Below are positions 2,103 through 60,804 of a DNA stretch of 64,000 nt, in pieces. The stretch comes from Protoeuglena noctilucae. Its lineage: Eukaryota. The stretch covers positions 682,001 to 746,000 of the forward strand of contig OY253680.1 in assembly GCA_958009085.1 (NCBI GenBank). The letters are read 5' to 3'. Numbering within the stretch: position 1 is the first letter of the stretch; each line of letters begins with the position of its first letter. The translations under genes and the position numbers were made by a program. A model generated the notes under the pieces. That model was not told the DNA's origin, ran no database searches, and was given only the letters and a program-made list of their open reading frames with translations.

Positions 2103-2174
2103 GATCGCAACGCTGTCGTTCGGCACGCACTGGAGTTGAGAGGAAGGGCCGTTGGCTTGCAAGTCTGTGGCCCC

Positions 2175-2183
2175 TATTTAAAT
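2175..2183. promoter_or_regulatory. AT-rich TATA-like element (TATTTAAAT) between the divergent kinase and TDP1 genes
   Basis: Only AT-rich island in the ~100 bp between the presumed ATGs at 2102(-) and 2205(+). The core ATTTAAAT is palindromic. Confidence 0.3.
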
Positions 2184-11155: not shown

Positions 11156-14089
11156 TCACCTCCCCTGCTTGTAGAAGTCGTCCACTTCCTTGTATTGGTC
11201 CATGATGGTCTCCGCACGCAGTCGCCTGGCCATGTCGGTGGCCACGCCCACCAGGATGAGCACCGAGGTGCCCGCGAAGCCACGGAAGGCCTGCGAGGGC
11301 AACGAGGGTACCAGGAGAGATGGGCACAAGACCCAACCCACTCACATACCCCTCTCATCCACCCCTTGGCTTCCCTTGGCTTCTCTCTCACATCAGCCAT
11401 GCTCACCATCTACCCCCACTCTCACCCAACACCCACCCATCTGTCCATCCACTCGCCTGGAGGTGCGTGACGGCCTCCACGAGCGCAGGCGCGGCCGCCA
11501 GTGCCCCCAGGAACGCCGACCCCAGCACCGACATCCGCGCGAGGGTGTCTGTGATGAAGTCCGCCGTGTTCTTGCCGGGGCGGATGCCTGGGGAGGAATG
11601 GCAGCATTTGATGCTGATAAGTACATGTTACTACTATTATACTTGGCAACAAGTTAGTACTAGAACCCTAACACAGCGATGCTCATCGATGCAAGACGGG
11701 GCGGGTGCGACGCGCTTGCTGTCAGGTGACTGGTCTCTGTGGGCTCTCTAAACACTCCATGCGTCACATCCAGATGAGACCCTCACCAGCCAGGGACGCC
11801 CCCTGCCTCTTCAGCTGGTCTGCCACGTCGCTGGGCTCGAATTGCAAAAAGGTGTAGTAGTAGTTGAACATGACGATCAGGGCGATGTTGAAGGGGAGGT
11901 ACAGGGAGCCGGAGGGGGTGAAGGCGGCAGCCGCGGACTCAATCGTGGGGTTGTCTGCAAGAACAGTGCGGGTGGGGTGGGTTGAGATGTGAGGGGTTAC
12001 ATCAGATTGGGTGCGAGAGGTGAGGTGTGGTGAGCGTCATGGATGTGACGGACGAAAGGTGACAATGAGCAAGGTGAGAAGTAGGCATGCGTTGCGCTGC
12101 TTTGCTCACTGGAGAACCGCGCGAGGGACGCCGGGAGCGCCAGGAGGGAGGTGGAGAAGATGACCGGCATGACGCCCGTTGCATTGACCTGCAAGGGACA
12201 GACAGAGAGGCATAGAAACCAGTCACATGACATGTAAATGACACTAACTGTCTAGATGGCAGCAGCCGTGCGCTGTGTCGATAACTTGCGAACGATGACA
12301 TCCCACACGGCATCTCAGTCGGTCACACCACGCAACGTGCCGTGCCATACCCCTGCACCCTCTTGTACCCTTAACCAAGCCTCTCACCTTGAACGGCAGG
12401 AACGCGTTCTTCCCGATGGAGAACCCCGCCCTGCCCTGGTACTGGCTGGCGTAGTTGATGGGGATGCGGCGCTCGGCCTCCTGCACATACACGATGCCCA
12501 AACACGTGGCCAGAAAGGCACCCAGGAACACCCCGACGCTGCCCCAGCCCTGCTCCGCGGCCTGCTGGAGGGTGGCGCCCAGGGAGGTGGGCAGGGCGGA
12601 CACGATCGACACGAAGATGAGGATGGAGGTGCCGTTGCCCAGCTTGAGCTTGGTGATCTCGTCGGCGATCCACACCAGCGCCATGGCGCCGCCCGTGAGC
12701 AGCAGCGCGTTGCCCGCCAGCCACTCCAGCGTGAAGTCGTCCACGAAGGGCCTGCGAATGGGTGGAGGTGGAGGTGTTGGTGATATGTGTGGTGGTGCAG
12801 TGAACTACATATGTGCAGTAATGGAGCTGCCTGATAGACTGACTGTGCAATAACAGAGCTGCCCCGCCAGGCCCAACCGCCATGCCACACGGTGTTCCAC
12901 TGCACCCTCGCTTGAGGTAATTGAAAAGCCACTCAGCTGCCTGCCCTGTCAACACATGCCCACCCTGCCCACTCTGCTACTCTGCCCTCGCTTGAGGTAG
13001 TTGAGCTGCCCTATCAACCATTGCCCACCCTGCCCCTCCCACCCTCGCCTGAGGTAGTTGAGTTGCCCAATGGCCTGCGCCAGGGCGAACACCACCGCCG
13101 CGTATTTTTGGTAGTCCTGGAACTTCTTCCTCCCCACGGGTCCCTCGCGCTGCATCTCCTTGAGCTCCGGGAAGGCCGTGGAGAGCAGCTGGAACACGAT
13201 CGACGCGTTGATGTAGGGCACAATGCCGAGCGTGAAGACCCCCACGCGCGAGATGGACCCGCCCGTCAACGCGTCCACGTAGGAGAGGACGCCCGCGGCG
13301 CCGTCCGTGCCGCCCTGGAGCGCCGCGGCGAAGGCCTCGCGGTCCACCCCAGAGATGGGGATGTAGACGCCGATGCGCGAGATGAGCACCAGCAGGAGGA
13401 GCTTCGCCAGCTTGCCGCCCACCGTCTCCGGAGCGTCACCGCCGCCCGCGGACATCCCGCCGCGGTTCCGGTCGCCCGCGATCGTCCCCACCGGGGCGGT
13501 CAGGCCCCGCAGCGCGAGGGACAGGCGCTCAAAGGCCACCCCGGCCGACTGCGGGCGCGAACGAGCGCCGTGAGCGATGCGGCGGATGCAATGTGGGTCG
13601 TACGAAACATCGCGCTCGCGAGGGCTCACCGGCGCGGAGAAGACGCCCAGCGGGTCACGCTCCACGGGCGGTGGCAGCGCGAGGGTCCCCGCCCCCGACG
13701 CGTGGACCTGCGGAGGGCCCGACCAGTCGATGCGGGAATTGACACAGCAGTGCATGACGGGAGCGAGATCCTAGGCGGCGAGGCGAGCGACGCGCGCGGC
13801 GCGGAGCTCTGGATAACGGGCGCCGGCGGTCCGCCCCGCGCACTCGATGAGCGGGAGCACGTGCAGACGCACATATCGATGCATCTACATAACAAGATGT
13901 TCAGGACAGCAGCATCCGGCCCAGGTCCTCGCATCGGCGACGGGGGGGCACGCGGCCCACCTGGACATTTCGTGACGCCCGCAGCAAGAGCCCGGACACG
14001 CGACGATGTGCTTGCGTCAGCCTCTTCCGCCCACTCAACGATGCCGCGGCCGAGCCGGGCACTGTCCCTGCAGAACTTGCGCCCAGCAT
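11156..14089 (-). CDS. secY: Plastid preprotein translocase SecY (thylakoid SCY1 type)
   Basis: RIGVYIPISGVD, SISRVGVFTLGIVPYINASIVFQLL, WIADEITKLKLGNGTSILIF, AERRIPINYA, KVNATGVMPVIF, GTSVLILVGVATD. First exon resembles a transit peptide (MLGASSAG...RASRNVQ). Confidence 0.96.
12905..13075. repeat. Three copies of the SecY exon end and splice donor (QLNYLR / GCGAGGG)
   Basis: CCCTCGCYTGAGGTARTTGA at 12905, 12985 and 13042. The copy at 13042 is the inferred real junction. Confidence 0.85.
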
Positions 14090-22300: not shown

Positions 22301-25091
22301 ACGCATGTGGCTAGGGCGTCGTAGTCGGATGCTTGGAATCGGGAAGTCACCAAATCGCTGCATGACTGGTACCAGAGGTCGTCGGGGGAGCCCTCCTCCA
22401 AGCGCACGTTGCCGCCGCTCTGGGGGTGGTGGGTGTGGGGCGGGTGTGGGGGATTGGCGTTATGAGCACACTGAGCTGTGGCAGTAGTACCAGGCTCCCT
22501 TACATAACCATCCTCGTTGCAATCACCCCCTTGCACTCTCCCCCTCACCTCCAGCTCCAAGTCGAGCCTCCTCTCGTACTCAGTCACTACCACCATGCTC
22601 ACTCCCTCACTCCCCCCCCCATCAATCAACTCACCTCCAGCTCCAGGTCGAGCCTCCTCTCGTTCTCCATAGCCACCCCCGCCGCCTCGGCCACCACCGC
22701 CCGCAGCTCCTCCCCCGACCTCCGCATCATCGCCTCTTTTATCTCCAATGCGCGCGTCAACTCACGCACTTTGGCGTTCAACAGTCCCAGGGTGCTGGAG
22801 GGGCCCTCGTCGACGGCACCGCCGTACAGCCGGGCTTCGTGCATGTCACGCTGGGCGGACCTGGGGGGGGTTGGTGGAAGGGGAGGGGTGGGGAGGTGTG
22901 GGTGGGGGTGTGGGGGAGAGGATGTGGGGTTGTGGAGGGTGGTGTGTGCGGCGCGGTGTGGTGTGGTGTGGTGTGGGGTTGGTAGCGGTGGTGAGGGGCG
23001 GATGGTGCGATGAGAGGCAGGTGGTGTGATGTGACTGGGCTGTGGAGGCGATGCAACTATGCGACTGAGCTGTCATGGCTCGCTGTGATGGCCATGCCAC
23101 CACATCGCACTCGCCTGACTTCCCGGTGCATGGCGTCAATGCTCTTGGCCAGGGGGTCCGTCTTGAGCACCAGCCCCTCCCTGGCACGGCGCATCAAAGC
23201 ACGGCACGTGCGGCGCAGCGTCTTGATGCGCATGTTGTAGTACATGCGCTGCGAGGGAGATGTGAAGGGGGGTTGAGCCATACGAGAGATGCGTATATTA
23301 TGTGCATGCCGTGTAGCACGTGCCTTGTGACGCGAGAGCGACAACAGTGTCAGCCATCACAACCTCTATCCCTTCAACCACACGGTGTGTAAGCCAGCTA
23401 TCATGCAATCAACCATCGACCCCTCGCCTTCTTTAGAAACGTGGCCTCCGCCAGTTGCTGCGTGTCGGGTGGGATGTCCATGGCGTCGAGGCTTTGAATG
23501 AGGGGGAGGACGTAGAGGGCGTAGGTCTGGTAGTTGGAGAGCTGGGCCACGGGACAGGGGCCCCTGGGGGGACGATGGGAGCGGGTGCTTAGTACTAGGA
23601 GGGGGGTGGGAAGGGGCCAGGTGTGGGCAAGCGAGGCAAGTGGGGCAAGCGAAGAGGTGGGCAGGGGGGTGAGGGGAGGTGCGGAGAGGCCAGGGAAGGG
23701 CAAGAGGGGCAAGCGGGGCAAACGAGGTGGGGCAGGAGGGGAGGTGGGCAGAGGGGTGAGAAGGGAAGCGCATGTACAGGGTGTGAGATGCAACAGCAGT
23801 GCGCGGCGTGCTGCGATGCGCGATGACTCACCAATGGGGGTCGGCCAGGGCGAGGTGCGTGAGGTTGGGCATGTGCGCCAGGTTGGCTGCGGGGGCGGGG
23901 TATGGATGCTTGAGGTAAGGTGAGGAGAGGGGGGAGTCGATGACTGCAATGACGCTGCGTTTACAGCGGGTAACAATGTCAATAATTGACACCACTTGGT
24001 GCCTATGTGAGCCCTCACCAATCTCGCGGAAGGAGCCGATGAGGTTCTTGGACAGGTTGAGCTTGGTGATGCCCGGGTTGGGGTCCAGCGAGTGGCCCAG
24101 GCTACGGATCCTGCGGCGCGCGCGCGAGTTCCGGGTCTTCACAGGCGCAATAGGCCACAGGGGGCACTTCCCCATCGCGCTGACATCGGCTCTCCGCGCC
24201 CCCTCCGCTCGCCTGTTCCCCGCCAGGTTGAGTTCCTTGAGGTTCTTGAGCGCAGCAATGTTCTCGATGACCGCAATCTGGTTGTCGTTCAGCCACAGCA
24301 CCTCCAGCCCCGCCAAAGCGTCGAGGTTCTCAATGCGGCGGATCTGGTTGCCCCAGAGGAAGAGACGCCTGCGGAAATATTGGAAAATATTCGTTGAATT
24401 TGCAGTTACTCGGAGTCGCACCACTCAACCCCGGCACAGGTGCAGGTGACAACCTGTGCGCCTCACCGCAGCTTGACGCACGCCTGCAGTCCCTGGATGC
24501 GCTCGATGTTGTTCTCCACAAGCCACAGGGATTCCAGGTGCGGGAGGTGCTCGAGGGACTCGATCTTCGTGAAGGTCTGCTGCGCCAGCTGGAGCATGGT
24601 TAACTGCAGTGGGCGGAGACGTGGGCCAGGGTCAAGGATTGCCCCGTAGCTCCTTGCTGGCGGGGCCAAGGAGGGCCGAGTGACCCGCGATGCGTTGCAG
24701 CTGCAAAGACATTGCGGCAGGGCGCCTCGTTAGGAAAGCGCGCGGCAACGGCGCTCGCCTGGGAGAAGAACCGAATGCACGACATGCTGGGGAAGTTGTG
24801 CATGAACATCTCCAGGCGCTTGATGCCGCACTGGCCGCGGATGACCTGCAAAGGCGGAGAACAAGGATCAAGTCCGTTCGGCATCGCGCGGGCGATGCGC
24901 GGGGACGCTGGGCATCGGCCTTCCCTGTCGACGAGCGCTGCGAGCTACGACCGGCCGCTCCTCGCCTGGTCCAATGACAGGCCATTGCATTCGCAAACGT
25001 CCTCCAGGATCTCCATCTCCGCCGCGGTCGGAGGCCCCGAGTCGCCCTGCCCGGGGGCCACGAGGCCCGGGCTTGAAGGCTGGCGCTGCAT
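16320..25091 (-). CDS. LRRC9: Leucine-rich repeat protein 9-like ciliary protein (SDS22-type LRRs flanking a PARP-like domain), roughly 25-30 exons
   Basis: Many LxxLxLxxNxIxxIEGL repeats and LRRcap motifs (LDGRPV). N-terminus EILEDVCECNGL...LEMF. Central region RVVRVHNRHLR, EYLFYG, LLLPEYLVEFEY. Confidence 0.88.
16370..16485. repeat. Intronic hexamer microsatellite (GGTGAG/GGTGGG/GGTGGC)n
   Basis: Visible directly in the last LRRC9 intron. Confidence 0.8.
18580..18854. repeat. Four identical 21-bp copies of an LRRC9 splice acceptor plus exon start
   Basis: TCGATGCGGTTGCCGGAACTG at 18580, 18667, 18757 and 18834 (periods 87, 90 and 77 bp). Confidence 0.92.
19325..19362. repeat. (GTGTGG)n microsatellite in an LRRC9 intron
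   Basis: About six perfect hexamer units. Confidence 0.85.
19678..19702. repeat. (GAGT)n microsatellite in an LRRC9 intron
   Basis: About six tetramer units. Confidence 0.85.
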
Positions 25092-36484: not shown

Positions 36485-36815
36485 AGCATCGGATTCATGA
36501 ACACTTGCATTCACGACTCACATCCACCCACATGAACTCACACGAGCTCTATCTGCCCGCGCCTGCAGTGTTTTCGGGCACACGTTCGCAACGGGGACGA
36601 GCAGCGGCACAGCGTCCGAGTGATGGCGCCAGGACCACGGGACAGGTAACGCGCGAGACACCTGTCGCGAGGCGGGCCATCGCAGAGGCACGGGCGCCAG
36701 GCGTTAAAGCACCGCGACAATGAGTGGAACAGCACCCCGGGCCCCTCCGCGCAGGCGCGCAGGTGGCTACGTACATCCCGAAGAACGTGCTGAGCCTGCC
36801 CTGGATAACTCGCCC

Positions 36816-38049
36816 TCAAGTCACGTCGCCCGCCCCGCGCATAGGTCCCACAGAGTCCTTCGGGTTATCCGGTTGCGTCCCCTTTCCTAGCGTCTCGAGC
36901 CATCGCTCGGCCATCCCCAGGCACCTGCGCAGAGCATCGCGCACACTTCGCGTTCCGTGCGCCTGCACGCCAGCCGCTGCGCGCCATCAGATGAGCTGCC
37001 GTACCTCGCGACCTCCTCGCGTTCGAATCCGTAATGGTTGAGGTCCCGCACGAACACCTTGCTCGGGCAGTTGCCGATCCCCAGCAGCGTCGCCACCGCC
37101 TTCCTCCGCAACCCGGCCCGGTGCACCCCCGCCCCCTCGAGGTCCTTCACCTGCGCGTGAAGTTCACTCATTCGTATTCCTCATTCCCCATCTCGCTCTT
37201 GTAGCCCCTTCTACACCCACGCGCCCCACGCACCTTGGCCGACACGTCAAAGTCGTGCCCTCCCAGCCCCCATCGCTGCAAGTCTTCCCGCGTGAACTCC
37301 TCCCGCTCCATGTCCGCCCGCCGACTCCTCGCCAGCGCGCGCCGGATGGCGTCCGGGCGAGCGTGCTCGACCCCCAGCTCCCCCACCTCCGCGTCCCCCA
37401 CGGCCCTCCGCAGCACTGCGTCGTTCCCAGGCACGAACGCGTGCAGGCTCACCCCCGGCAGCTTCCGCTCGATCTGCCGCCGCATCTGCCGGCCCGCGTG
37501 GTCCGGGTCTAGCAACAGGATGGGCGTGCCCAGCATCGACACCGCCTTGGTCAGCCGAGACTCCTGGGCCGCGTCCAGAGCCTCGTTCGCTCCGCCCATC
37601 ACCAGCACGTGACCCGCCACGGACCTGCAAGCGCGGAGGAGGTCTGAGTCAGGGCAGGCGGAGAGGGGACACGCGTGCATCGTACAGCCTCGCCCCTCCC
37701 CGCCGCACCGGAGCGCCGCCATCGCGTCCTTGGTGCCCTCGACGACGACGAAGCCCGGCACGGGCGGGAGGCCCGTGTCCCGGCCAGCGTTCGAGAAGAC
37801 CTGGAGGCGTCCAAAGTCGCCCTTGCTCCGCGCAGCCAGCGCGCCCTTCCGGCTGCCGGGGCCCTGCTGCGGGCCCGCCACCTTGTCCCAGAACCTGTCC
37901 CCGTTCACTGCGTGCGCGGCCGGGCGTCGCCTCGGGTCCCGGTGCGGCGCGGGCGCTTGGGAGCTTGGCACAGGCGCGGATGCAGGTCTCCGCGGTCTCA
38001 CCGATGCTGCCCGTGTCGAGAGAGAGGACGTCAGCCCAGTTCCTGGCAT
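36816..38049 (-). CDS. rnmV: Ribonuclease M5 (TOPRIM nuclease, 5S rRNA maturase) with an N-terminal organelle-transit-like extension, intron-containing
   Basis: VVVEGTKD, ILLLDPDHAG, HAFVP, LGVEHA..AIRRAL, then C-terminal domain EDLQRWGLGG..RRKAVATLLGIGNCPSKVFVRDLNHYG. Motif order is colinear with Bacillus RnmV. GT-AG introns at ~37625-37705 and ~37151-37232. Both ends are approximate. Confidence 0.9.
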
Positions 38050-38676
38050 TTCCCGCAGTCCTCGCTCCCCCGCTGCCCCCCCCCGCCCTGGAGAGCGGCG
38101 CGGTTGCGGACGAAAGCGCCCTGCCGCCGTGCGGGGGCCGGAATCGCGGCGCCCCGGCCGGCCACCCTGCCAGCCAGCGCCGCGCCAAACACGCGCACAT
38201 CCCTCCCGCTGTCTCCGGCCAAAGCGTGCGACGCGACGGAGAACTCGGGGTGCCCCGCCAGTCAGACACGGTAAAGCACCGCCCGTGCCGCCAATCTGCG
38301 CCCCCGCACCCCCGAGGCGACCCGCTGTTCCGTATATCTGACGTCCCTGCCAATCTTTCCCTGTCGTGGTCCCCGCCATCGTGGACATCGGCGCCGAGAG
38401 TGTCGCCCAAGACTTTTTGAGACTGATTTGGTGCAGCGTGGCCCTCGCGACACCGACATGCGCATCGGTTTGAGTCGGGGCACCCACCCTTGCCTCTCCC
38501 CGGGCGGCCCGGGGCGACCAACGGGGGAAGGGAGTTTTTGACTGGCCCTCGGGCCGAGATTCCGTGCCGTAGGGGCTTGACGACGGCGGTCTGTGCCGTC
38601 TCGCACACGGAGGGCCGCCTGACGCCGCGCTCCCGGGACGCCTGCGCCGCTGCGGTGGCCAAGTGCCCGAGGCGCG

Positions 38677-41600
38677 ATGCTCGGATACCACGCCCCGGAT
38701 GCCTCCCGGGCCCTCGGGGGCAACGGGTACATCGATGATCAAATCAGCAGGCAGTTTAACGAGGACAAGTACGTTTCGCCCCCGGCAGCGAGGGAGGGCA
38801 ACGGTGCGTGCCCGCAAAGCGCCTCGGCCCCCCCGGTCGCCGCACTCGCTCCCCGCGGCCCTCCCGGCACCCTGGATCCATCTCGACACAACTCTTATGC
38901 CATCTCCCTCCGCCTCACGACCCCGCAGGCCACATCCAGCCCGGAGCGCCCGCGACTCCCGATGCCTCAGATGCGACGCCCGCCCAGGCCGCGCCCGACC
39001 CCGGGCCGGATCTGGCGCCCGCCGCCGATGCGGGCAAGGCGGCCGCTCAGCAAGTCAAGCTCGAGGTGCGTGGGGGGGTCCGCAGGGACGCGCGGCGGCG
39101 TGCAGCAGGGGCTCGACCCTCAACCGTAGGCGCGATGCGTTATACCCTGCCCCGCGACCTCGCAGGTCGAGGGGTGGCGCACATTGGAGCGGGTCACGCT
39201 GCAGGATGAGCTTCTGGCAGCGGACGAGAACGCCCACCTCTCCAGCCTGGACGCCAGCGCACGAGACCCGCTGCACCCCGACCGCCTCGTCTACCTCGCG
39301 GGGCTGGGCGCCACCGCCCGCAACGCGGACTTCTTGAGCATCGCGACGGTCATCGCGCCCCTCCTGCACGACCTGCGCGCGGACGAGTCGCAACAGGTGC
39401 GAGGCTGCGCTGTGATGCACGTTGAGCTTCCTCTGGAGTCGATTCGCGCGCCGTAGTTGAAGCTGCCCCCCGCCGGATTGCGCAGGTCCGCGAGGTCGTT
39501 GCTGCGGGCGTCGGGGATGTCGCGGAGGCCGCGGCGCAGGCCGCGGAGGCGGACGGGGACTACTGTGCCGAGCTGGGGATCGATCCGCGGACCGTGCCAA
39601 AGCTGCCCGAGGTCCTCTCGACCCTCGCGACGACATGCAGTGAGTGGCTGTAATCGCCGGGCTCGCCCCGGACCCGCTGTGCGTCGCTGAATGACGGCCA
39701 CATGGCGCGCCGTGCCTCAACACATTCCTGCCGCTAAATGCACCCGCCCGCGCCCCCGCTGCGCAGTGACGATGCTCGAGGACACGCGTCCGGAGGTCCA
39801 GGAGGCCGCCGCTGCCAGCGCTGGGCGCGTCGCGGCGCTGCTGCGGCCGGGTGCGCTGGGGGAGGCGGTGCTGCGGCCGCTGCTGACGCTGAGCCGGCAC
39901 GGGAGGGGCCAGACGCGCGCCGCCGCCATCTCCGCGCTCTTCGAGGCCGTTGGTTGCGTCTGCGAGGCGGCGGTCGAGCGCGGCGACGCGGCGGGCGCAG
40001 AGGAGGGGGGCTCGCCATGCGACGCTGAGGCGACGCTGTCGGCCGCGATTGAGGGCGGCTGGGACGCCGTCATGTCCGTCGCGCGCCGCGTCGCCGCCGA
40101 CCCGGAGCTCGAGGTGCAGATCGCGGCGGTGCAGGGGTTCGCGAAGGTGGCGCGCCACCTCCCCCTGGCACAGGCGGAGGGCGCGGGGGTGGCCGTGCTG
40201 CGCGAGGTGCGCGGGCGGGGGCCGCGAGACTGTCGATACTTATCGATACTTATAGTCATCTGCTTTGTGCTAAGCATATGTTATTCACATATGTTATTCA
40301 CGCATTCTCGCTCGCAGGCGGCGGACTCGAGCGTGTGGTCGGTGCGGAAGGCCGCTGCTCTGCTGACGCCGAGCCTGAGCGCGGCCGTGGGCCCCGAGTG
40401 CCGCCGGCAGGTCGTGATGCGCATCGTGGAGGAGCTGCAGGTGCGCGCGGATCTCGGTCGCAAGGGGGGCGGGATTCGCGAGCGTAACTGTGCGACGGGG
40501 ACGCCTGCGACACAATAACACAATGCTGTCGCTCATCGATCTCCACGTGAGCGCTTTTCGCTTCCGCAGTCCGACATGTCGGCGTGGGTGCGCAAGGCGG
40601 TGCAGGGCTGCATCGCCCAGGTGGTGGCCAGCTTAGCGTCGCAGGACGTGCCCCCAGCGCTTGTGAGCGAGTTCTGCCGCATGGCCTCCCATCACGACAA
40701 GGAGGTGCACGTGGCGTGTGCCCACGACTTCCCCGCCATGGTCGCCGTGCTGGGGCCCGAGCGGTGAGAGTTGGGTGGGGCAGCGACGCATCGGCTTGGG
40801 AGTGAGCGCCTGACGAAGGTGCTAGGGAGCGACAGTCACATGGGATGTCTCATGCGCTGACCTGATGTCGTTCGCATCGCGCTGCAGGTGGTCGGAGCTG
40901 GAGGCGCTCTTCTCGGAGCTCTGCGGTTCCGTGTACATAGAGGTGCGCACCAAGACGGGGACGTTCTTGCACGAGGTGGCACGGCTGCTGCTGCCTGGGG
41001 GAACTGCTACGGGTGGCGCTGAGGCTCGGGAGAGGCAGCGGCAGGTGGTGGAGGCGGCGGAGGCGCTGGTGGGCGACCCGGAGCCGGACGTCATCGCAGC
41101 GACGGCCAGGGGAGCGGGGAAGCTCCTGGGGTGTCTGGACGAGGGGGCGGCGAGGCAGGCGAGGGGCGCGATGAGTGGGTGTGGCATTGCAAGGGTGCTG
41201 TTTAGAGTGCCTTTGCCATTCGCTGCATGTCGAACTCTTTGGCAGAGCCATGGACTGTGTTGCACGTGACTGTTGCCTTTTCGCGTCGCCCTATCACATG
41301 CACCCTCACTACAACCACCCCCATCCACGTCTACCCACCCCAGGTGCTCAAGTGTCTCTTGGCGTCCCTGGCGGCCGGCACCCCGACCGACGCGACCTTC
41401 TGCGGCCCCTGGCGGATGCGCCAGGCCATCGTGGGGGCACTGGGTGAAGCGTCCAGCATCCTCCCGGAGCGTGACGTGGAGGGCGGGGTGGTGCCCGCTC
41501 TGCTGAGCGCCCTGGGGGACCCCGTGGCTGCGGTGCGGGAAGAGGCGGCGGGGCAGCTGGGCCGCGCGGTGTGCGTGGCTGCCATGGCGGGGGCGGCGGT

Positions 41601-51934: not shown

Positions 51935-54900
51935 ATGGCAGGGCCGCGGCAGGGTGCCGGACACGCCGGCGGGGACCTGCTCGAGTCGCTGGCGGGCGAC
52001 AGCGGGCTCACCCCCGACGAGCTGGTGCAGTGGCTGATGCTGGCGTCGCAGGCGGGTGGGGATGCGGCGGGTGTCGGTGACTCCCAGGCACAAGCAGACG
52101 AGGCCAGGCGCGCTTTGCAGGCGCGGCTGGCGAGTCTCGGGATGCCGGGCGGCGCGGAGTTGTCAGCGGGTGGAGTCTCGGGGATGGAGGGCGCATTGGG
52201 AGATGGAGCGATCGGCGCCGATGCCGGTATGGGTGTGCCAGATGCGCCATCGTGGGAAAATCCGGGCGATGGCGAGTTGCCGAGGGTCTGGGAACCTCCA
52301 GAGAACGGGGCGGAGTTGCTGGGCGAGGACTTTGGGCTTCCGACGGCGGGGGCGGGCGTGTGGGGGCGGGGCGGGGCCTTCCTGGAGGGTTCGGATGAGG
52401 CAGGGTCACTGCCTGATTACGTGGTGGCAATGGACAGGGTGCAGGTGAGTGGGATGGTGTTGGTGGCGGTGGACCCTGTGCGTGCTTGTAGAGTGCATGG
52501 TTTTTGGCAGTGAAACGTATTGCCAAGGACGTCCTTGCTCCCCATCTCTACTCGCAGCCCATGGTGCACCGCGTCTTGGACCCCTCCTCCACCCGTGAAA
52601 TCCTCTCGGCCTCTCTAAGCGACCTCAAGAGCTGCCTGGAGTCCTTTAGTCCCTCAGCCGCCCAGGCGTGCGCCAGCTACGTCGCATTGGGACTCGTCTT
52701 TCTCATCGACAACGCCACCGCCAAGACGTGAGTGGAGCAGTCACTGGTACACAGTCATCTTGGCAACCGATGCTGCAATCATTGCTGCGATTCACGCTTC
52801 AACTGTCATGTAGTCCCTGCCGTGCAGTCAGCCCCGCTTCAGTGCACCCTCGCAGGTCCGATCGCGAGCAAGCCAAGGCCAGACCGGGCCCGGCAGCGGT
52901 GGACGCGGCTCTGCAGTGCCTAGAGACGCTGTTCTGCAAAAGGTGGCGTGCTGAGGGTGCTGCGTCGACGCTCCTGCAGCGGCTGGGGGCCGTGATTGAG
53001 GCAGACAGGGACTGGCTGGGGGAGCACGCGCGCCTGGCTGCCCTGCGAGTGATGGCGGCGCTGCTGGGGGAGGGCCAGGGCGGTGGCACAGAGGGCGAGG
53101 GGCGCAGGGGTGCGGAAGAGGATCCGGGAGAGGTGCGGTGCAGCTCATGACATGCGGCTGCATATATCCGTTTCCTAGCTTTTCTTGGGACCAACTTTCA
53201 CCGCCCGTTCATCATGTGTACCACTGTCCCTCTCTTCTCTGCTCTCAGGACCTGTTAGACGTCCTCGCTGCCCCGCTGCAGTTCGGCAACGACGCTTTAG
53301 CCAGGCACGCCACCCCGTCCGCCCCGCTGTCCCTGGAGCTGACCACGGACAGCGCCATGCCGGTGGTGGGGTTCGCACTCTCAGGTGAGCTGAGAGGCAT
53401 ATTGATGAACGCTGGGGCTGGCTTGCTACGATCGGGGCATGGTCACTTGTTACGGGGCTCCGTCATCATCAGCACCCCTCCCTACCCTCTACCCAGCTCT
53501 TTTGTCAGTCTCCCACCCCTCATTCCCTCCTCCCACGCAGCGCTGTTGCAGTGCGCGGTGCAGGAGACGGAGTTGGGGCGCAGGGGCAGCCCAGAGGTGC
53601 GGAGGGCGTCCCTGCGAGTGGCACGGTGAGTGCAAGAGAGAAATGCCACAGGACATGTGCATGGACAGCCCTGCGACGGTCACCACAAAGCACACAGCAG
53701 CTGCCATATCGCCTCAGCGTCGCTAGTAGCGCTTCTACCGACTACGATAGGTGGACCCGAGTAAGTTGTAGAGTCATAGAATGTGGCGATGCCAACCACG
53801 ATCCCACCTTCCCTGTCCGCAGTCGTCTCATCGTCGCTGTGGACAGCGCGGACGTCACGGCGGCCTTCCTGCCCGGGACCGTGTCAGGTCTGACGCGTGT
53901 CATCGTGGCGGCCACGGGCGGAGTGCGCCCGAGCGCTGCGCCCGCCGAGTTGGTTGGGAAGGAGGCGGTGGCTGAGGCGAGTGAGCAGTGTGGATCAAAA
54001 AGGGTGTCTCTGTGTTGCATGGCACTGCGTTGTGCATACATGCTATTTGCCTCTGCTTTGCACCTCCACAGGCCCTCACCACGCTGTCCCGCGCCCTCAC
54101 CTGCACCCTTGGGTCTGAGGCCCTGCCGGGAGCCGTGCTGCGGGAAGTGTGGGAGCAGCGTGGCGAAGTGGCGGCATCTGGAGGGGCGAGCCAAGCAGCT
54201 GAGGGGATGAGGGGCGATGCACCAGGGCAGGAGGCGGGGGATGGGTCGATGGCAGCGGCTCTGCAGGCGCTGCAGGGGCTGGCGCTGGGAGAGGGGCGGG
54301 CGAAGGGGGTGGAAGGCTCGAGTGCTGCTGGGGAGGGGAGGAGTGAGCGGGGCGAGCGTGGGCGGGGCGATGCTGCCGGCGGGGATGGCAGCGGTGCGGG
54401 GCGCGGCAAGGACGGTGCAGCTTCGCTGGTGGTGACGCGGGACGCTAGTTGGGTCATGGAAACGACCAAGAGGATCGCGACGTGCCTGGGAATGGTGGTG
54501 CCGAGGGGGACAGGGCACCCGTCCCGACGCGTGCGCCGAGCGGCGGCCGAGATGTGCGGGGCACTGTTGCGGGTGCGTATTTGCAAGGCGGCTGCGGATG
54601 CCGGTGTTGGTAGCAATCGCAGTAATTGATTGATCTCAGGTTGCTCTCCCTCTCTTTCGCCTCCGCAGCAATGCCCCGTCACCCTGGCGCCCTCCGCGCC
54701 TCTCCTGCTGGGCGCCCTCCTGACACTGTGTTCTGACAGCGATGCGCCAGTGGCGGCAGCGGCCGCGGCAGCCGTCCGGGGCCTGAGGGTGTTTGAGGGC
54801 CAGCCGCATGAGGTGGCGGCGAAGGAGGAGCCGCGAGACAAAGAAGGGACCGGCGCTGGCGACGAGGACAACGAGTGGAGGGGCGGGGAGGTCGCGGGTG

Positions 54901-57900
54901 AGATGGAGTGTGATGAAGGAGTGATGATGCTGCCTCACTTCTTCTGCCTGACTCGTTGATGAGTGGACATGCTGAGTAGTCGACATGGATTGACTGACTG
55001 ACTGCCAGATAAATATTTGACAGGAGTTATAACCATCCAACACCGTCCCGCCTCGCACACAGATGTCCTGGCGGACGACGGCCTCTTCCCCGGACTTGAC
55101 TTCGACGTGAAGCAGCTACTGGCGGGGAGCGAGCCCGGAATCAAGGGCCACGGTGACAGCCAGGCATCCGGCAAGGACCCGGCAGATGCAGAGATCGACG
55201 TGGGTATGGACGGGGAGGTCGGTGTGCCCATGGCAGACAGGGAGGGCGACGAGGCGCTGGGTGCTTATGGCGCATACGAGGACATGGCGAGGGAGCTCTT
55301 GGGGGCCGGGGATGTTGACGGTGACGATGCTGAGCTGGGATGGGGCGCGGGCGACTCCGCTCTGGGCCACTCCGACAGGAAGCCTGGGGTTGGAGGGCCC
55401 CGTGCCAGCGATGCGCCTGTGCCCGTAGCTGCCGCGGCGAGCGCCAAGGGAGGGGCGGCGGCGTGGGGTGGGGTGGCGGGGCAGGCGGTGCCATGGCTGG
55501 TGCTGTGCGGGATGATGGAGGAGATGTGGGAGGCGATGCCAAAGGCGGCGTTGGGATCTGCGGATGCCGTCGAGAAGCTCTGCGGGAGACTCGCGGCGGC
55601 CATGCGGGTCGCGGGGGCCCGCCGCATCAGTGAGGCGTTTCTGGCGGACCCGGTCAGGGCTGGGAAGGTCCTGCGGGCCGTGGAGAGGACCCTGGTGAGC
55701 GGGACAGTGCATGGGGTGGTTGGTTGACTCACAAACACTGATTGGCTGACTGTGCTGGTCGGTTGCCCCACCATGGCATTACATTTGATCCGCCACGCTC
55801 CACTGCCCCACACAGGTCTTTGACGCCAGCACCGCCGCCCTCCTGCTCCACTCGACCCCCGACCCGGGTACCTGGGCCGCTCTGCGATCCGGCCACGCCG
55901 GGGATCGATTCCACACCGAAGGGGCCGATGCAGCGCCGCCCGCCACCGCCGGCGCCCCCCGCCTGCCCCGCATGCCCCCTGGGCTCCTCTACCTGCACAC
56001 CAAGTCGTCCTACGCGGCTCTCGCACACGTGCTGCGGTGTCTGGGGAGGGCAGGGGCCCTGGCAGCCCGCCCCGTGGGCCAGGCAAGGGGCGTGGGGCTC
56101 CCCAAGGCATTGCCGTCCTGTCGTAAAACACCAGCAAGTGCGGCGGGGTCGGAGGGCCTCGCAGCGCTTCACGACGCCTTGCTGACGAGGCTGTCGGGGG
56201 CCATGACCCGGGGACGGTCTCAGAGCGCGGACGTGGGCGGCCTGGCGGGTGGGGCGCCGTGGCAGTGTACGGCAGCGACGTGGGTGGTGGCGATGGCGGA
56301 GGTGATCCATGGGGCATCGGCTGCATGGGAAGAGGACACGGCTGTGCCTTGGAGCGACACGACGGGGATCGCAGGGGCGGGGGACGTGCATGGGGTCGAG
56401 AGGGTGCAAGTAAGCAGCGTGGGGTTGGAGGCAATGGGTGCGGCGTTCGTGGGTGCGATGTTTGGAGAGGACGGAGGGGTGCAGGAGTTGGCGACCAGTG
56501 CGGCTGGGCCAACAGAAGGAGAAACAGGCGAGGGCAGGCTTGAGTGGCAAAGCAGATGTACCTGCGTGGGTGATACCGAGCATGGATGCGCGTGGCAGAC
56601 ATGATGCTCACTTGCTCATGCGTTCTCCACCTGCAGATGACCCACCGCCCCCTCCGCTCTCGGCCCACGCCCTGGGCCTCAATGCCTTGGTCCTCCGCGT
56701 CTGCCTGGAGGCCTGCGGGGCCCTGGCGCGGTCGATCGGCCCCGCGTTCCTCTCCCACGCGAGGCTCTTGCCCGCCTGCCTCCTCCCCATGGTAGAGCGT
56801 ATCGACGACCCCTCCTCCGCCGTGGCGGGTGCTGCGAGGGCAGCGCTCGCCGCCGTCTGCGCCGCGGGCGGCCACGGGTCCCTCCGCGCCCTGCTCTCCG
56901 CCAACGCCGACTTTGTGGTGGACCGCGTCTGCGCCCGCATTCGCGCAGCTGCTGGAGGGGCCAGCCGCGGCCGCGCGGGTCCATCGCCGGCGCAGCTGCT
57001 GGCCTCGCTGCTGGGCGCTTCCGGCGCGGCGCCCGACCTGCTGCCGCTGCTGGCAGAGCCGGCGCAGGCGGCGATGCGGGGCGTGGCGGTGCGGATGCGG
57101 GCGGCGAGGTTCGAGGACGCTGCGTTGTACCTGGAGGCTCTGTTGCACGTGGCGAGGGGCGCAGAGGGGGAAGCGCGGCGGGTGCGGGAGGAGGCAGAGG
57201 GCGGCGACAAAGGACGCGGTGATGGGTCGAGTCTCGGGTCCCCTGACATGCCCAGCGGGGAGCGGGGTGGCGGAATCGGTGTCACCGGGTCGGTTCGCGT
57301 GGCAATGGCCCGGCGGCGGACCACGTGCGTGGCCTGCGCCAAGCTGGCGACGGCGGTGGTGGACGCCTGCGGGCCTTTGGCGGTGTCGACCTCACCGCGG
57401 ACGGCCGTGGCGGCCATGGAGGCCTGCGAGCACGCCTTGGCGGCGCTGTCGGACGCCGGGAGGGCGCACGCGGCAGATCGCGCGCGGCAGGAGTCGATGG
57501 TTGGGTCGCAAGAGCGGGGGCCGGAGGTGGTGGGACCGTCCGAGGAGGTCCCGCAGCTGCTGCCGAGCGTGCACGCGCTGTGGTACCCGCTGGCCCACGC
57601 GCTGCGGGGTCCCTCAGTCGCGGGCACCGAGCGCGCGCTGTCCTGCCTGGCCCATGCGGCGGCCGTGTCCGACGGTGCGTTTCTGGCACGGCGGATGGCC
57701 ACGGAGGCGTGGCCGGCGGTGCGGCACCTGCTCGCGCACGGCGCGCCTATGTCGGCGGGGGCGGGGCCGGCGGAGGTAGGTGCGGGGCTCGTGCGGGGTC
57801 CCCAATGGTCCTTCCCGGCCAAGCGCGGTGCCAAGAGCAGTCGGCAGTCGTTGCAAGGTGCTGGTGGTGGTCACACGACCCTGGAGTCTCTGGCGGTGAC

Positions 57901-59100
57901 AGACTCCTCGCTCAGCACCCGCCGAGACGGGGAGGGCTCCGGGCACAGCGCAGAGGGCCTCTCCACTGCGATGCGCGCACTGAGGGACGCGTACAAAGGC
58001 GCAGCAACGGCAAGCGCAGCACTGCCGGGGCACCCGGCCCCCGGGACTGCCCTGCGGCTGCGCGTGGCGGCGCTGCAGTGCCTGCGTTGCTTGGCCGAGG
58101 ACACCACCGCGCGCCCGGCGCTGCGGCACCTGGCCCCGCGGATCATCGACGAGGTGTCGCTGCTGCTGGACCCCTCGGGGCCGCCCCGGCTGCGCGAGGC
58201 GGCGGTGCCCGCGTGGCTGGCGGTCGCAAAGCTTGACCCGGACGCTGCCTGGGGGCTGCTGGCCGACGTGTGCATGGCAGTGGGGGAGGCGTTGCCGGGG
58301 GCGGCGCGGGGTGGGAAGGGGCCGGCGATGGCGGCGTGGGCGGGCGAGGGACGGTCGGTACCGACCCGCCAATGCTCCTCAGGCTTGGCGCGGGCCCTGG
58401 CGTTCCTGGACTGCGACTGGCGGTACGCATCCCACGCGGGGCGGGGCAGCAAGGGCAGGGCCTCTGCTCTGGCTGCCGCGGTAGTGGATCGGCGTAGTGC
58501 TGGGTCTAAGGCAGCGGGGTTGGCGGGGGTGGCGGGGGTGGGCGGGCTGCAGAGCGGCGACAGCAAGGGGGTGGATGGGGCTGACACGCATTGGGGTGAC
58601 GAGGGGCTGGGTGTGGAGGAGGATGAGAGGATGGCGGAGACGCTGCGACTGGCTGGGAAGGAGGAGCTGTTGCATGAGGACCCGTGGGAGTGGCCCGTGG
58701 CGAGGGGTGGCACGATGTGGCCGGCGCCTGTGGCAGCAGTGGCGGTGGCGCGGACGGGGCGGCTACTGCCGGAGGGGCGGGCGCTGCTGCCGAGGTTCAG
58801 GGCCGTGGGGGCAGGTGAGGGTTGAGTGCAGCTAGAGTCATCCAGGGCAGGTGAGGGGCAGCCATGCAGGACTCCTTGCTATGCTGACTGCGGTTCTTTG
58901 CCCATCTCGCTTGCACAGGGGATGCGTCTGAGGGCCGGGGTCTGTCCCAGCTGATCCGCCTGTGTGCCGAGCGTGGGGTGGCCAAGGTGGCGCCCGCGTT
59001 GGCGAAGAGAGTCGAGGAGTGGGTCGAGGCGCTGTGGGTGGCGAGCGTGGCGGTGGGCGATGAATGGGGGGATGCAGCGGCGGCTGGGGTTGGGGAGTAG
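51935..59100 (+). CDS. TTI1: TELO2-interacting protein 1 (TTT complex), multi-exon
   Basis: AAFLPGTVSGL, HPSRRVRRAAA, LLSANADFVVDRVC, LLPLLAEP, LLPSVHALWYPL, FLARRMATEAWP and KLDPDAAWGLL. Probable last exon 58918-59100. Confidence 0.85.
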
Positions 59101-59368: not shown

Positions 59369-60804
59369 CTAGTGCAAGCGGACTCCGTGCCGCCAATGCC
59401 GGAACTCCAATCTCACCTGCAGCTCCCTTCCGTCCACCCTCACGCCTAGCGTCAACACCATTCCATGTCTGGTTTTCTCCACCCCCGGCCCCCCGCATCC
59501 CACGACCTCCACATTCTTCACCCATGCCCTTGCACAGATGCTGCAGAGAAGGCCCCCCACCTTGCACCCCTCAATGCGGCCCCCAGACATGACCAGGCAG
59601 CTGGTGTCATGCGTAACGCAAAGGCCCCAGCCATTGCATCCCTTGATTCCTGTGTCCAACACCTCGACTTTGCCGCTGTGTATGCAAGCGATGCCGCTGC
59701 CATGGCCGCCGACAATGTTTGAGCGACGGATCCTAATGCGGCCCCCGGCAAAGCACTTCACGCCACCCGTAAGGCATTTCTCGTCCGTTACTCCATCTAC
59801 GGCGACCCGGCCCTTGTGCGACACCACGCCGGGACCCCAGCAGTCTTTGATGGTAACTTCTCGAGGTGTGCACTGCCACCGGCTCTGCACTCTACCCCAC
59901 CACCTGCACACCGCTGAATGTGCCCCTCCTGTACTGCCAGCTTGCTGCCTGCTCCATTTACCCGCGCCCCCGGCCCTACACACCCGTCAATCTCCACCCC
60001 TGCTACCTCCGCCTCGCCACCGTCTGTGCAATACACGCCAGCTACTTTGCACTGCTCTATGCGCCCCTTCCGCACCACCAGCTTGCTCCCTGTTCCACGC
60101 GCTCGTGCCCCCTGCCCCTCGCACTCCACGATCTCCACCCCTGCTACCTCTGCCTCGCCACCCTCTTCGCAAGACACGCCAGCCATCTTGCACCGCTCAA
60201 TGCGCCCCTCCCGCACTGCCAGCTTGCTGCCTGCTCCCTTCGCGACTGCCCCGTTCCTCCGGCACTCCACGATCTCCACCCCTACCACCTCTGCTTCCCC
60301 GCCCTCCTCGCATGCCACTCCGTGACTGCCACACCCAACAACCCCTCCCTGGTACATCTGCAGCCGCGCCTTCTCACGTATCTGCACCCCACCACCCCTC
60401 GGCCGCACCCCCTGCAGCACCACACGCGTCCCCTCCCCTGCCACCCTCAGCAGCCACGGCCCCTCCCACGCCTTCCCCGCGACCAGCGTCCCCTTCCGCA
60501 GCGTCACGTTCCCTGCCTCCATCACCAGCGCATCCCCCAGCACCACCTCCGCACCCTTCAAATCGATTTCGAGGTCGCCCGGGCCCCCGGCTTTATGCAG
60601 CCCGAGCGCATCCTGCAGCCTTTCCTCGGTCTAGCCCTGCAAGCACATCTCACTCACATGAACCCCTTGCGCCTGCTCTCGGGAAAAAGCGCTGTCTCGT
60701 GTCATGACGCTAACAGTCAGCCTCACCGCTCCTCCCCCCAGTTCCCCTCCTGCGTCCATCGCCGCGCCCTGCCCGGGCAGGTCCGCACCGCTCGCCGACG
60801 CCAT
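59369..60804 (-). pseudogene. Right-handed parallel beta-helix (PbH1) repeat protein with an in-frame TAG and a frameshift; no introns seen
   Basis: Repeats such as GVSCEEGGEAEVAGVEIVEC..GARARGTGSKLVVRKGRIEQC. TAG at 60631-60633. Frame change near 59860 (AHLE to EVTIKDC). Confidence 0.78.
59900..60345. repeat. 141-bp (47-aa) coding tandem repeat, about 3 units
   Basis: ATCTCCACCCCT recurs at 59990, 60131 and 60272 with conserved flanks. Confidence 0.88.

Follow-up and report, generated by a model that had tools for sequence, protein, structure and literature searches.

A nuclear, intron-containing RNase M5-like gene of Protoeuglena noctilucae is a candidate for plastid 5S rRNA maturation in green algae

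Introduction

In 5S rRNA, it is chiefly the mature portion that RNase M5 recognises. The Bacillus enzyme is stimulated by L18, according to one report (PMC4419217), and another gives as the catalytic set a Glu of the Toprim domain, a DxD motif and E96 of B. subtilis (PMC6755086). Structures of the Toprim domain are available (6TG6, 6Z2B), and the two-domain enzyme, RnmV, has been solved on the ribosome in entry 6TPQ; the title attached to the chain used below, 6tpq_B, is 'RNase M5 bound to 50S ribosome with precursor 5S rRNA'. In sequence databases the bacterial enzyme is defined by the NCBIfam equivalog TIGR00334, with a curated cut-off of 110.65 bits. A review states that it has no homologue in cyanobacteria (PMC10989914).

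In land plants, mature plastid 5S rRNA is reached by another route. As outlined in the part of PMC3017836 devoted to it, RNase P makes one cut, a second endonucleolytic cut is made, and RNR1 trims in the 3'-5' direction, possibly together with PNPase. The end product is the same as the one proposed here, but this route is multi-step, uses an exonuclease and, as described there, proceeds without RNase M5. A plastid can therefore manage without RNase M5 (PMC3017836), which counts against the proposal made below.

In green algae, attention had already been drawn to Cre12.g497101 of Chlamydomonas, which, like the gene studied here, is a nuclear chlorophyte gene for a candidate chloroplast nuclease, presumably of the same family; its orthology is assumed. 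Cavaiuolo et al. (2017) place it, in a one-sentence mention without experiment, among 'candidate chloroplast-targeted enzymes', and the role proposed in that sentence, the sole published proposal that we found, is general cleavage of dsRNA and not 5S maturation (PMC5737564). Searches of literature text for Cre12.g497101 returned nothing beyond this paper, and neither gene nor family is listed in the supplements of PMC5737564 and PMC11135702. Searches under DUF4093, the C-terminal domain of RNase M5, returned nothing, and ribonuclease M5 combined with Arabidopsis gave only an unrelated topoisomerase review. No functional study of the green-algal RNase M5-like family was found. The gene described here is a new member of an RNase M5-like family of eukaryotes that had been noticed before but is uncharacterised. 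A first-pass annotation of this DNA had proposed an undescribed rRNA maturation route, but the Chlamydomonas homologue was flagged in 2017 and relatives bear the name 'ribonuclease M5' in databases; the remark in that annotation that algal homologues might already be annotated agrees with this.

Results

A five-exon gene, spliced and expressed

The window analysed is a stretch of 64,000 nucleotides of DNA from P. noctilucae, a marine green alga with a GC-rich genome. On its minus strand, between 36816 and 38200, lies a nuclear gene of five exons whose coding sequence runs from 38200 to 36816 and whose spliced model yields a product of 347 amino acids. Marine metatranscriptome contigs, from four RNA runs of one study, match the locus with 0 differing bases over the stretch compared, about 36500-38227. 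All four introns are GT-AG; full RNA joints back three of them, and the support for the other is a contig end of 11 bases.

Coding exon 1 (38002..38200) supplies residues 1-66, the beginning of a basic N-terminal extension rich in Ala, Arg, Gly, Ser and Pro, and RNA contigs cover it from 38002 to 38194. In the frame of this exon there is no ATG other than the one at 38200-38198, which is also the first to occur between 38260 and 38002 and is thus the likely translation start. We infer this start rather than observe it, because the RNA contigs end at 38194, 6 nt short of it. Intron 1 (38001-37908, 94 nt) was overlooked in the first-pass annotation, which had three introns. Its joint, 37907|38002, is nevertheless present in contigs of three of the four RNA runs, in which the shorter flank of the joint measures 164-193 nt, and a contig of run X1 crosses the intron unspliced. 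The first-pass annotation had started the protein at the ATG at 38049, with the N-terminus MPGTGLTSS... Removal of intron 1 puts this ATG out of frame: in the spliced mRNA it is followed by 16 codons (region 38002..38049) and then by a TGA across the exon junction, so that this N-terminus is not translated.

Coding exon 2 (37709..37907), present in RNA contigs, carries the remainder of the extension and the first Toprim strand, including the catalytic Glu E123 (codon 37740-37738) and D127. The joint of intron 2 (37708-37625, 84 nt) is again seen in three of the four runs, and an X1 contig retains the intron. As this intron is in frame and has no stops, a naive ORF reads through it; the naive single ORF, the 246-aa gene call P0001, is prokaryote-like in look. 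Coding exon 3 (37234..37624) encodes the Toprim core, with the DPD, HAF and GVEHA motifs (D172 at 37509-37507, D174 at 37503-37501, E219 at 37368-37366); the first DUF4093 half also lies in this exon (about 37255-37377). The RNA support for intron 3 (37233-37151, 83 nt) is an X4 contig whose loose end agrees over 11 bases with the edge of the adjoining exon at 37234. Coding exon 4 (37005..37150), covered by RNA contigs, holds the second DUF4093 half (about 37010-37123). Intron 4 (37004-36925, 80 nt) is joined out in all four runs, and coding exon 5 (36816..36924) ends with the stop codon at 36818-36816. The 3' untranslated region, 36500..36815, measures at least 316 nt, the RNA contigs continuing to the edge of the compared stretch. 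The stop and the three introns that had been implied from the DNA letters (37708-37625, 37233-37151 and 37004-36925) were correct. These data establish the structure of the gene and its expression.

Within the window, the gene has as neighbours TTI1 and an intron-split SecY. TTI1 is a family not known outside eukaryotes. Both genes agree with a nuclear genome, as the first-pass annotation had argued, although their 'algal' character, also claimed there, is not evident from them. Pfam revealed no rival family in the nine ORFs, from both strands, that overlap the gene. Elsewhere in the window, Pfam scans of 47 and 84 long ORFs gave few matches, because exons are short and spurious ORFs are many in this GC-rich DNA.

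The protein has the two domains and the catalytic residues of RNase M5

On the minus strand, the motifs follow each other as VVVEG..D, DPD, HAF and GVEHA, and then the C-terminal domain, which bears out the RNase M5 motif order noticed at first. In unspliced ORFs the C-terminal domain, DUF4093 (PF13331, cut-off 25 bits), is found in two pieces: profile positions 2-44 in the ORF at 37168-38049 (33.6 bits, E 5.7e-8) and positions 45-83 in the ORF at 36887-37180 (25.9 bits; 27.3 bits for exon 4 alone). The break between positions 44 and 45 falls exactly at intron 3, and the two halves become contiguous once spliced. A search of the spliced protein with a local HMM, built from 27 sequences of bacterial RNase M5, gave 126.2 bits (E 3.5e-39), with profile positions 9-180 aligned collinearly to residues 119-317. 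The read-through ORF already matches the solved enzyme 6tpq_B with an E value of 7.5e-9, and the profile of the algal clade described below matches it with an E value of 5e-38 along residues 2-181 of the 187-residue chain. The Toprim fold and acidic residues are shared by DnaG primase and by small proteins that consist of a Toprim domain alone (2FCJ, 2I5R, 1T6T), but these lack the DUF4093 domain.

All residues invariant in the 44 bacterial RNase M5 sequences (44/44) are present in the P. noctilucae protein, namely E123, G124, D127, D172, P173, D174, G177, R181, G217, E219, A221, R279 and L286. The catalytic Toprim Glu, DxD and GVEHA Glu of the bacterial enzyme, the last being E96 in B. subtilis, are among them, and the columns of E123, D172/D174 and E219 are conserved in 49-55 of the 55 clade sequences. 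Compared by eye with the printed clade consensus, part of the C-terminal motif of the window protein deviates. Compared with the bacterial enzyme, the algal protein is some 110 residues longer at the N-terminus, and the alignment displays a lengthened loop from HAF to GVEHA as well as an insertion within the C-terminal domain. The gene differs further by its nuclear location and its four spliceosomal introns.

A predicted structure was examined for the nearest named relative, a Pedinophyceae protein (P0007) that is 42% identical to the window protein. The AF2 model of this relative (pLDDT 92) has bacterial RNase M5 as its best fold match in the PDB, 6tpq_B (E 4.9e-11, TM 0.75 by target, 209 columns).

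Membership of the RNase M5 family, by Toprim plus DUF4093, is thus clear at the domain level, and given the intact residues the protein is very probably an active nuclease of this family. The picture is different for the equivalog: whereas the DUF4093 search suggested at the outset gave scores above cut-off, the partial read-through ORF scores 27.8 bits against TIGR00334, and none of 41 long or partial relatives reaches the cut-off (range 30-89, best 89.2 bits), compared with 19 of 20 short bacterial-type matches. By annotation rules, therefore, the same function is not implied.

A clade that spans Chlorophyta

The window protein falls in a clade that comprises 55 long proteins with N-terminal extensions. 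In two trees, unrooted, built by a 'quick' method and without resolution on the bacterial side, a branch with SH-aLRT 99 parts these 55 from 44 bacterial RNase M5 sequences, 17 of which came from genomes sampled around Heliobacterium mobile and Selenomonas massiliensis, both species included. The sister of the window protein is the protein of Pedinophyceae sp. YPF-701 mentioned above (SH-aLRT 95). Named members are all Chlorophyta (8/8), the genera or groups being Micromonas, Pedinophyceae, Picochlorum, Micractinium, Auxenochlorella and Neomeris. Since only eight carry names, the eukaryotic nature of the clade is drawn from these relatives, the N-terminal extensions and the taxa of Atlas clusters. 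In a word-indexed protein search, the window ORF retrieved its own gene call alone, and the clade alignment retrieved 7 proteins.

Database names vary among members: XP_002503540 of Micromonas commoda is a 'Ribonuclease M5 C-terminal domain-containing protein', that of Auxenochlorella a 'Toprim domain-containing protein', and those of Micractinium, Picochlorum and Pedinophyceae sp. YPF-701 are hypothetical proteins. They share the domain pair and an N-terminal extension with the window protein, to which chlorophyte relatives are at most 42% identical, and none is characterised. The family spans Chlorophyta and is not a peculiarity of P. noctilucae; any transfer must therefore be ancient. A recent transfer from a Firmicute to the alga was considered and found no support in these trees: the algal sequence is not nested in a Bacillota subclade, and all 44 bacterial sequences lie beyond the SH-aLRT 99 branch.

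Search for the gene in cyanobacteria

Cyanobacterial and Bacillota genomes were reached through a 16S primer scan of genome contigs. In a sample of 401 genomes of the Trichodesmium phylum, DUF4093 was above cut-off in none, with one match at 21.4 bits, and the algal profile gave 3 matches only, all Toprim-only and inside ORFs of 633-1372 aa. In the positive control, DUF4093 was found in 32 of 151 genomes of the Heliobacterium phylum. A cyanobacterial, endosymbiotic origin finds no support in this count of 0/401 for an RNase M5-type gene, a count that holds for the sample and not for the whole phylum. The result therefore favours an ancient acquisition from outside cyanobacteria. The clade is Chlorophyta-wide, stands apart from bacterial RNase M5 and had no member among the cyanobacteria searched; most likely, therefore, green algae received the gene at an early stage of their evolution from a bacterium that was not a cyanobacterium. 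The lateral origin first proposed keeps its footing in this respect; the label 'Firmicute-type' goes beyond what the trees show, the clade lying outside the 44 bacterial sequences sampled.

The N-terminal extension

In the window protein, a basic stretch of about 110 residues precedes the Toprim domain. The first 56 residues have a net charge of +8, and the first acidic residue, located by eye, is at position 57. The length before the Toprim domain has a median of 72 aa in the 55 long sequences versus -2 aa in the 44 bacterial ones, and an extension of at least 30 aa is present in 42/55 and 1/44, respectively. The clade extensions total 4,791 residues, with 781 R+K for 323 D+E, a 2.4-fold basic excess. 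Lengths spread between -7 and 255 aa, and errors in some of the gene models are possible. This composition suggests that the extension is a presequence for import into an organelle, which we consider fairly likely.

Discussion

We propose that the gene encodes a plastid-imported, catalytically intact RNase M5-family enzyme that would mature plastid 5S rRNA, a reading to which, taken as a whole, we give an even chance. In such an enzyme, the Toprim Glu, the DxD motif and the second Glu would perform two-metal catalysis, next to DUF4093 as the C-terminal domain. The N-terminal extension would direct organelle import, and the mature enzyme would enter the plastid. There it would bind plastid pre-5S rRNA, as Bacillus RNase M5 does with uL18 on the RNA, and cut both strands of the terminal helix to leave mature 5S ends. 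We lean slightly towards 5S rRNA as the main substrate.

Substrate is where the best of the alternatives departs from this proposal: the protein could be a general dsRNA endonuclease of the plastid, clearing sense/antisense duplexes or other structured RNAs, with 5S not the main substrate. Such a role has been suggested for the Chlamydomonas homologue, in the sentence cited above (PMC5737564), and the long branch of the clade, together with scores under the equivalog cut-off, leaves room for a change of substrate. However, the full RNase M5 architecture, C-terminal domain included, is conserved in collinear order along about 175 positions, and the only solved structure of this domain is that of the enzyme on the 50S subunit with pre-5S rRNA (6tpq). 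Such conservation throughout Chlorophyta suggests one fixed structured partner, and we find a general dsRNA role unlikely.

The compartment is the second point at which readings diverge. A basic, acid-poor extension cannot separate mitochondrial from plastid import in green algae, and it suits the mitochondrion equally well, so an enzyme maturing mitochondrial 5S rRNA, or another mitochondrial RNA, has to be weighed. A homologue is nevertheless reported in Chlamydomonas, whose mitochondrial genome is not known to have a 5S rRNA gene. Moreover, the sentence of Cavaiuolo et al. on this homologue lists it among chloroplast candidates (PMC5737564). A mitochondrial enzyme thus appears improbable; if the protein is targeted to an organelle, the plastid is the likely one, and the protein probably works in the chloroplast.

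The protein could also be a nuclease of the cytosol or nucleus that has taken on a new role, in which case its N-terminal region would be no presequence but a disordered appendage. The wide variation of the extension lengths (-7 to 255 aa), some of which may reflect faulty gene models, would fit this reading. Against it, no substrate is known in the eukaryotic cytosol for an rRNA maturase of bacterial type, and 42 of the 55 clade sequences have at least 30 extra N-terminal residues, with basic residues outnumbering acidic ones 2.4-fold; we rate it slightly below the mitochondrial enzyme. Contamination with bacterial DNA, or a transferred gene that survives as a dead relic, has in its favour the prokaryote-style look of P0001, but with four GT..AG introns (three removed in RNA contigs, the fourth with contig-end support), eukaryote-type neighbours, all catalytic residues intact and a reading frame that is open only once spliced, its probability is negligible. 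The first-pass annotation had held contamination unlikely for a nuclear, intron-containing gene; as the gene is also expressed, contamination is excluded.

The corrected gene model, with one more intron, another start codon and another N-terminus, matters for targeting predictions and fusion constructs. Green-algal plastids have no established route for 5S end formation, and this RNase M5-type gene gives a concrete, testable candidate. Should 5S rRNA be a substrate of the algal enzyme, a double-strand cut by one enzyme would serve in chlorophytes in place of the multi-step route of land plants. We advance only tentatively the broader view that chlorophyte plastid 5S rRNA is matured by such a Bacillus-style cut, made by an RNase M5 that came from a non-cyanobacterial bacterium and was retargeted to the plastid. 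If true, the route would be one absent from cyanobacteria and apparently from land plants, and lateral gene transfer would have replaced a step of organellar rRNA processing. The family is likely a case in which an organellar RNA-processing function derives from an ancient bacterial gene that did not come from the endosymbiont.

Gene Structure and Transcripts

The RNase M5-like gene lies on the minus strand, from 36816 to about 38200, in a window where long spurious open reading frames (ORFs) are plentiful on both strands because of the 58–72% G+C content. The naive ORF 37168-38049 (minus strand) has the motifs FVVVEG..D, DPD, HAF and GVEHA, and the RNase M5 motif order claimed by the first-pass annotation (VEG..D, DPD, GVEHA) was thus found. 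This ORF matches positions 2-44 of the Pfam profile for the RNase M5 C-terminal domain, DUF4093 (33.6 bits, E 5.7e-8), and positions 45-83 are matched by the next ORF, 36887-37180, in a different frame (25.9 bits). As DUF4093 is cut precisely between the two frames at a GT..AG interval, the break reflects an intron and not chance. At a threshold of E 0.01, Pfam matched none of the nine other ORFs that overlap the locus on either strand. The RNase M5-like match at this locus is real, and well beyond chance.

The model drawn from sequence only, which is that of the first-pass annotation, had four exons, introns of 84, 83 and 80 nt, and a product of 328 aa. Among public sequencing runs, four marine metatranscriptomes of a single study contained 51–63% of the sampled words of the locus, and four further runs, of unstated kind, contained all of them. 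Contigs of the four RNA runs align to the locus with no differing base, and all three RNA joints read CT..AC on the plus strand, hence GT..AG on the minus strand, as expected of the nuclear, intron-containing gene that had been proposed. These joints confirm the 80 nt intron (36925-37004, four of four runs) and the 84 nt intron (37625-37708, three of four), and reveal a 94 nt intron (37908-38001, three of four) that the earlier model had missed. For the 83 nt intron, the RNA basis is a single contig end, with 11 bases matching the next exon.

Once the 94 nt intron is removed, the ATG at 38049, initially taken as the start, opens only 16 codons before a TGA spanning the junction. That start is therefore abandoned, and the N-terminal peptide quoted with it is not part of the spliced protein. 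The Toprim frame runs on into the upstream frame, in which the sole ATG, also the first one within 38260-38002, is at 38200; RNA contigs extend to 38194. Judging from the reading frame, translation probably starts at ATG 38200. The corrected model has five exons, 1044 coding nt and 347 aa.

Over 37542-38187 (minus strand), contigs of one RNA run, X1, were unspliced across the 94 nt and 84 nt introns, the spliced form being found in the other three runs. Intron retention, pre-mRNA or DNA could produce such contigs. Keeping the 94 nt intron would place ATG 38049 in the Toprim frame, and a minor isoform making the 328 aa protein could then in principle exist, but the simpler reading is that the library contained some DNA or pre-mRNA. 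A prokaryote-style public gene call at the locus (P0001, 246 aa) reads through the 84 nt intron and terminates within the 83 nt one, without the second half of DUF4093; it illustrates how such intron-bearing genes are mis-called by metagenome pipelines.

The window holds another intron-containing gene, of the SecY family, at 12247-13770 (minus strand), its profile being divided over two frames (positions 2-62 in ORF 12952-13770, positions 73-174 in ORF 12247-12804). Domains of TELO2-interacting protein 1 (TTI1) are spread over 53985-58822 (plus strand): ORF 56414-58822 carries TTI1 and TPR_TTI1_C, and TPR_TTI1_N is matched weakly in ORF 53985-54626. To our knowledge, only eukaryotes have the TTI1 family, in keeping with a nuclear origin of the window. 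Further domain matches in long ORFs, at 1176-2177 (minus), 23831-24424 (minus), 39691-40518 (plus) and 59372-60630 (minus), were to a diacylglycerol kinase catalytic domain, leucine-rich repeats, a HEAT repeat and a right-handed beta-helix, the last matched in two adjacent frames.

Membership in the RNase M5 Family

The HMM check suggested by the first-pass annotation gave a divided answer. TIGR00334, the NCBIfam RNase M5 model, matched the read-through ORF weakly (27.8 bits over profile 40-128, versus a cut-off of 110.65), whereas DUF4093 and a local bacterial HMM recognized the gene. This local HMM was built from 27 short bacterial-type matches of an exhaustive search, 18 of which were scanned and 17 of these pass TIGR00334. 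The spliced protein scored 126.2 bits against it (E 3.5e-39), aligning residues 119-317 with positions 9 to 180. No residue invariant across all 44 bacterial sequences is lost from the window's protein, which has E123, G124, D127, D172, P173, D174, G177, R181, G217, E219, A221, A229, R279 and L286. Among these, E123 (the Toprim Glu), D172 and D174 (the DxD pair) and E219 (equivalent to B. subtilis E96) correspond to the two-metal catalytic set described for the enzyme (PMC6755086).

Structural comparisons led to the same family. The read-through ORF matches a solved RNase M5 chain, 6tpq_B, at E 7.5e-9, and a profile of 36 clade sequences does so at E 5e-38, covering residues 2-181 of the 187 in the chain. 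The nearest named relative, P0007 from Pedinophyceae sp. YPF-701 (42% identical), was folded from a 50-row alignment as a stand-in for the window's protein (mean pLDDT 92, pTM 0.88). Its top PDB match was again 6tpq_B, 'RNase M5 bound to 50S ribosome with precursor 5S rRNA' (E 4.9e-11, TM 0.75 by target, 209 columns), and the next ones were RNase M5 Toprim structures. The window's gene is a nuclear RNase M5-family gene.

A Clade of Long Algal Proteins

The exhaustive HMMER search, among 1.84 billion representatives, yielded 164 proteins with E values up to 0.001, including 29 with values up to 1e-10, and the best 150 of the 164 were worked on. In an NCBIfam scan of 61 relatives, the short ones (178-224 aa) passed the RNase M5 cut-off in 19 cases out of 20, versus 0 out of 41 for long or partial ones (scores up to 89.2 bits). 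Most of these 41 match the model end to end, and two have no match at E 1e-5 or better. For the trees, which were quick maximum-likelihood ones, unrooted, with an unresolved comb on the bacterial side, the 82 of the 150 listed relatives that cover the profile were kept and 68 left out. In both trees, a branch with SH-aLRT 99 separates every long protein, including the window's, from every short bacterial one: 55 versus 27 among the listed matches in the first tree, and 55 versus 44 in the second, with 17 sequences added from genomes reached via Heliobacterium and Selenomonas. Both trees pair the window's protein with that of the Pedinophyceae as sisters (SH-aLRT 97 and 95).

All eight relatives with organism names are Chlorophyta (Micractinium tetrahymenae, Micractinium sp. 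CCAP 211/92, Auxenochlorella protothecoides, two Picochlorum records, one of them Picochlorum sp. BPE23, Pedinophyceae sp. YPF-701, Neomeris dumetosa and Micromonas commoda), and no streptophyte is among these eight. Three Atlas clusters nearest two clade members are 88–100% Eukaryota with Chlorophyta most common, and serve as leads only. From the named rows, which are not a census, the eukaryotic nature of the clade is well supported. The family is old and found across Chlorophyta, the window's gene being one member.

Some clade members are far longer than the domain pair requires, such as P0055 (538 aa), P0173 (623 aa) and the Neomeris proteins P0019 and P0154 (463 and 492 aa). The stretch before the Toprim domain reaches 255 aa in the clade, and some members have long C-terminal tails. 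Extra domains, gene-model fusions or low-complexity tails could account for the excess.

Relatives bear automated names such as 'ribonuclease M5', '5S rRNA maturation endonuclease' and 'Ribonuclease M5 C-terminal domain-containing protein'; the first-pass annotation had foreseen that algal homologues might already be annotated. In the parts of the literature searched, the sole mention of a eukaryotic RNase M5 homologue was one sentence (Cavaiuolo et al. 2017, PMC5737564). The same search returned no functional study of eukaryotic RNase M5-like proteins, in agreement with the first-pass annotation, which knew of no characterised eukaryotic member. The window's gene thus belongs to a known, uncharacterised family noticed before.

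Origin of the Gene

Nearest by score among the named bacterial matches (10 looked up, three with names) were an Anaerovoracaceae MAG and a Desulfosarcinaceae MAG, and the top-scoring bacterial match, P0049, has a near-identical counterpart in a Heliobacterium-phylum genome. An endosymbiotic origin was tested on 401 genomes from the Trichodesmium erythraeum phylum, reached with a cyanobacterial 16S primer. DUF4093 exceeded its cut-off in none of the 401 (one match of 21.4 bits, in a 402 aa ORF), and the algal profile matched at E 1e-5 or better in three of them, by the first Toprim part only (profile 47-117) and inside ORFs of 633-1372 aa. In positive controls, 32 of 151 Heliobacterium-phylum genomes scored above the DUF4093 cut-off, and TIGR00334 exceeded its own in Heliobacterium mobile, Selenomonas massiliensis, B. 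subtilis and L. lactis. A review, in the part consulted, lists RNase M5 among enzymes without a cyanobacterial homologue (PMC10989914).

A non-cyanobacterial gene is favoured. Since it was not found where an endosymbiont-derived gene is expected, ancient acquisition from a bacterium other than cyanobacteria is the simplest reading; the alternative is that modern cyanobacteria have lost it. The lateral acquisition first proposed is thus favoured, but the 'Firmicute-type' label finds no support in the trees, where the clade is apart from all 44 bacterial rows (SH-aLRT 99). RNase M5 is patchy even within the Heliobacterium mobile phylum, as far as genomes of unstated completeness can tell.

Targeting and Possible Role

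All parts of the bacterial RNase M5 machinery are retained in the algal protein, whose Toprim domain is preceded by an extra stretch of about 110 residues with much Gly, Ala, Arg, Ser and Pro. Acidic residues appear only from position 57 onwards, and the net charge of the first 56 residues is +8. At least 30 residues precede the Toprim domain in 42 of the 55 clade rows (median 72), versus one of the 44 bacterial rows, and the clade extensions total 781 basic versus 323 acidic residues. By composition, they look like organelle presequences. We know of no 5S rRNA gene in Chlamydomonas mitochondria. The Chlamydomonas homologue was placed among chloroplast candidates (Cavaiuolo et al. 2017, PMC5737564). 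For these two reasons, the plastid is favoured over the mitochondrion.

Plastid 5S rRNA of land plants is described as maturing through endonucleolytic cuts and subsequent trimming by RNR1 (PMC3017836), and in a review from 2023 on RNA maturation in plant organelles the four passages mentioning 5S rRNA do not name RNase M5 (PMC10226603). RNase M5 of low-GC Gram-positives generates both mature ends by cleaving pre-5S rRNA in a double-stranded region (PMC10989914), a reaction stimulated by ribosomal protein L18 and inhibited by L5 (PMC10989914; PMC4419217). The rival carrying most weight is a general plastid dsRNA nuclease instead of a 5S rRNA maturase, and this is the role proposed in print for the Chlamydomonas homologue (Cavaiuolo et al. 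2017, PMC5737564). In the reading preferred here, that of a 5S rRNA maturase, the algal protein would be imported into the plastid and its presequence removed; the mature enzyme would then bind pre-5S rRNA and make a two-metal double-strand cut at its terminal helix.
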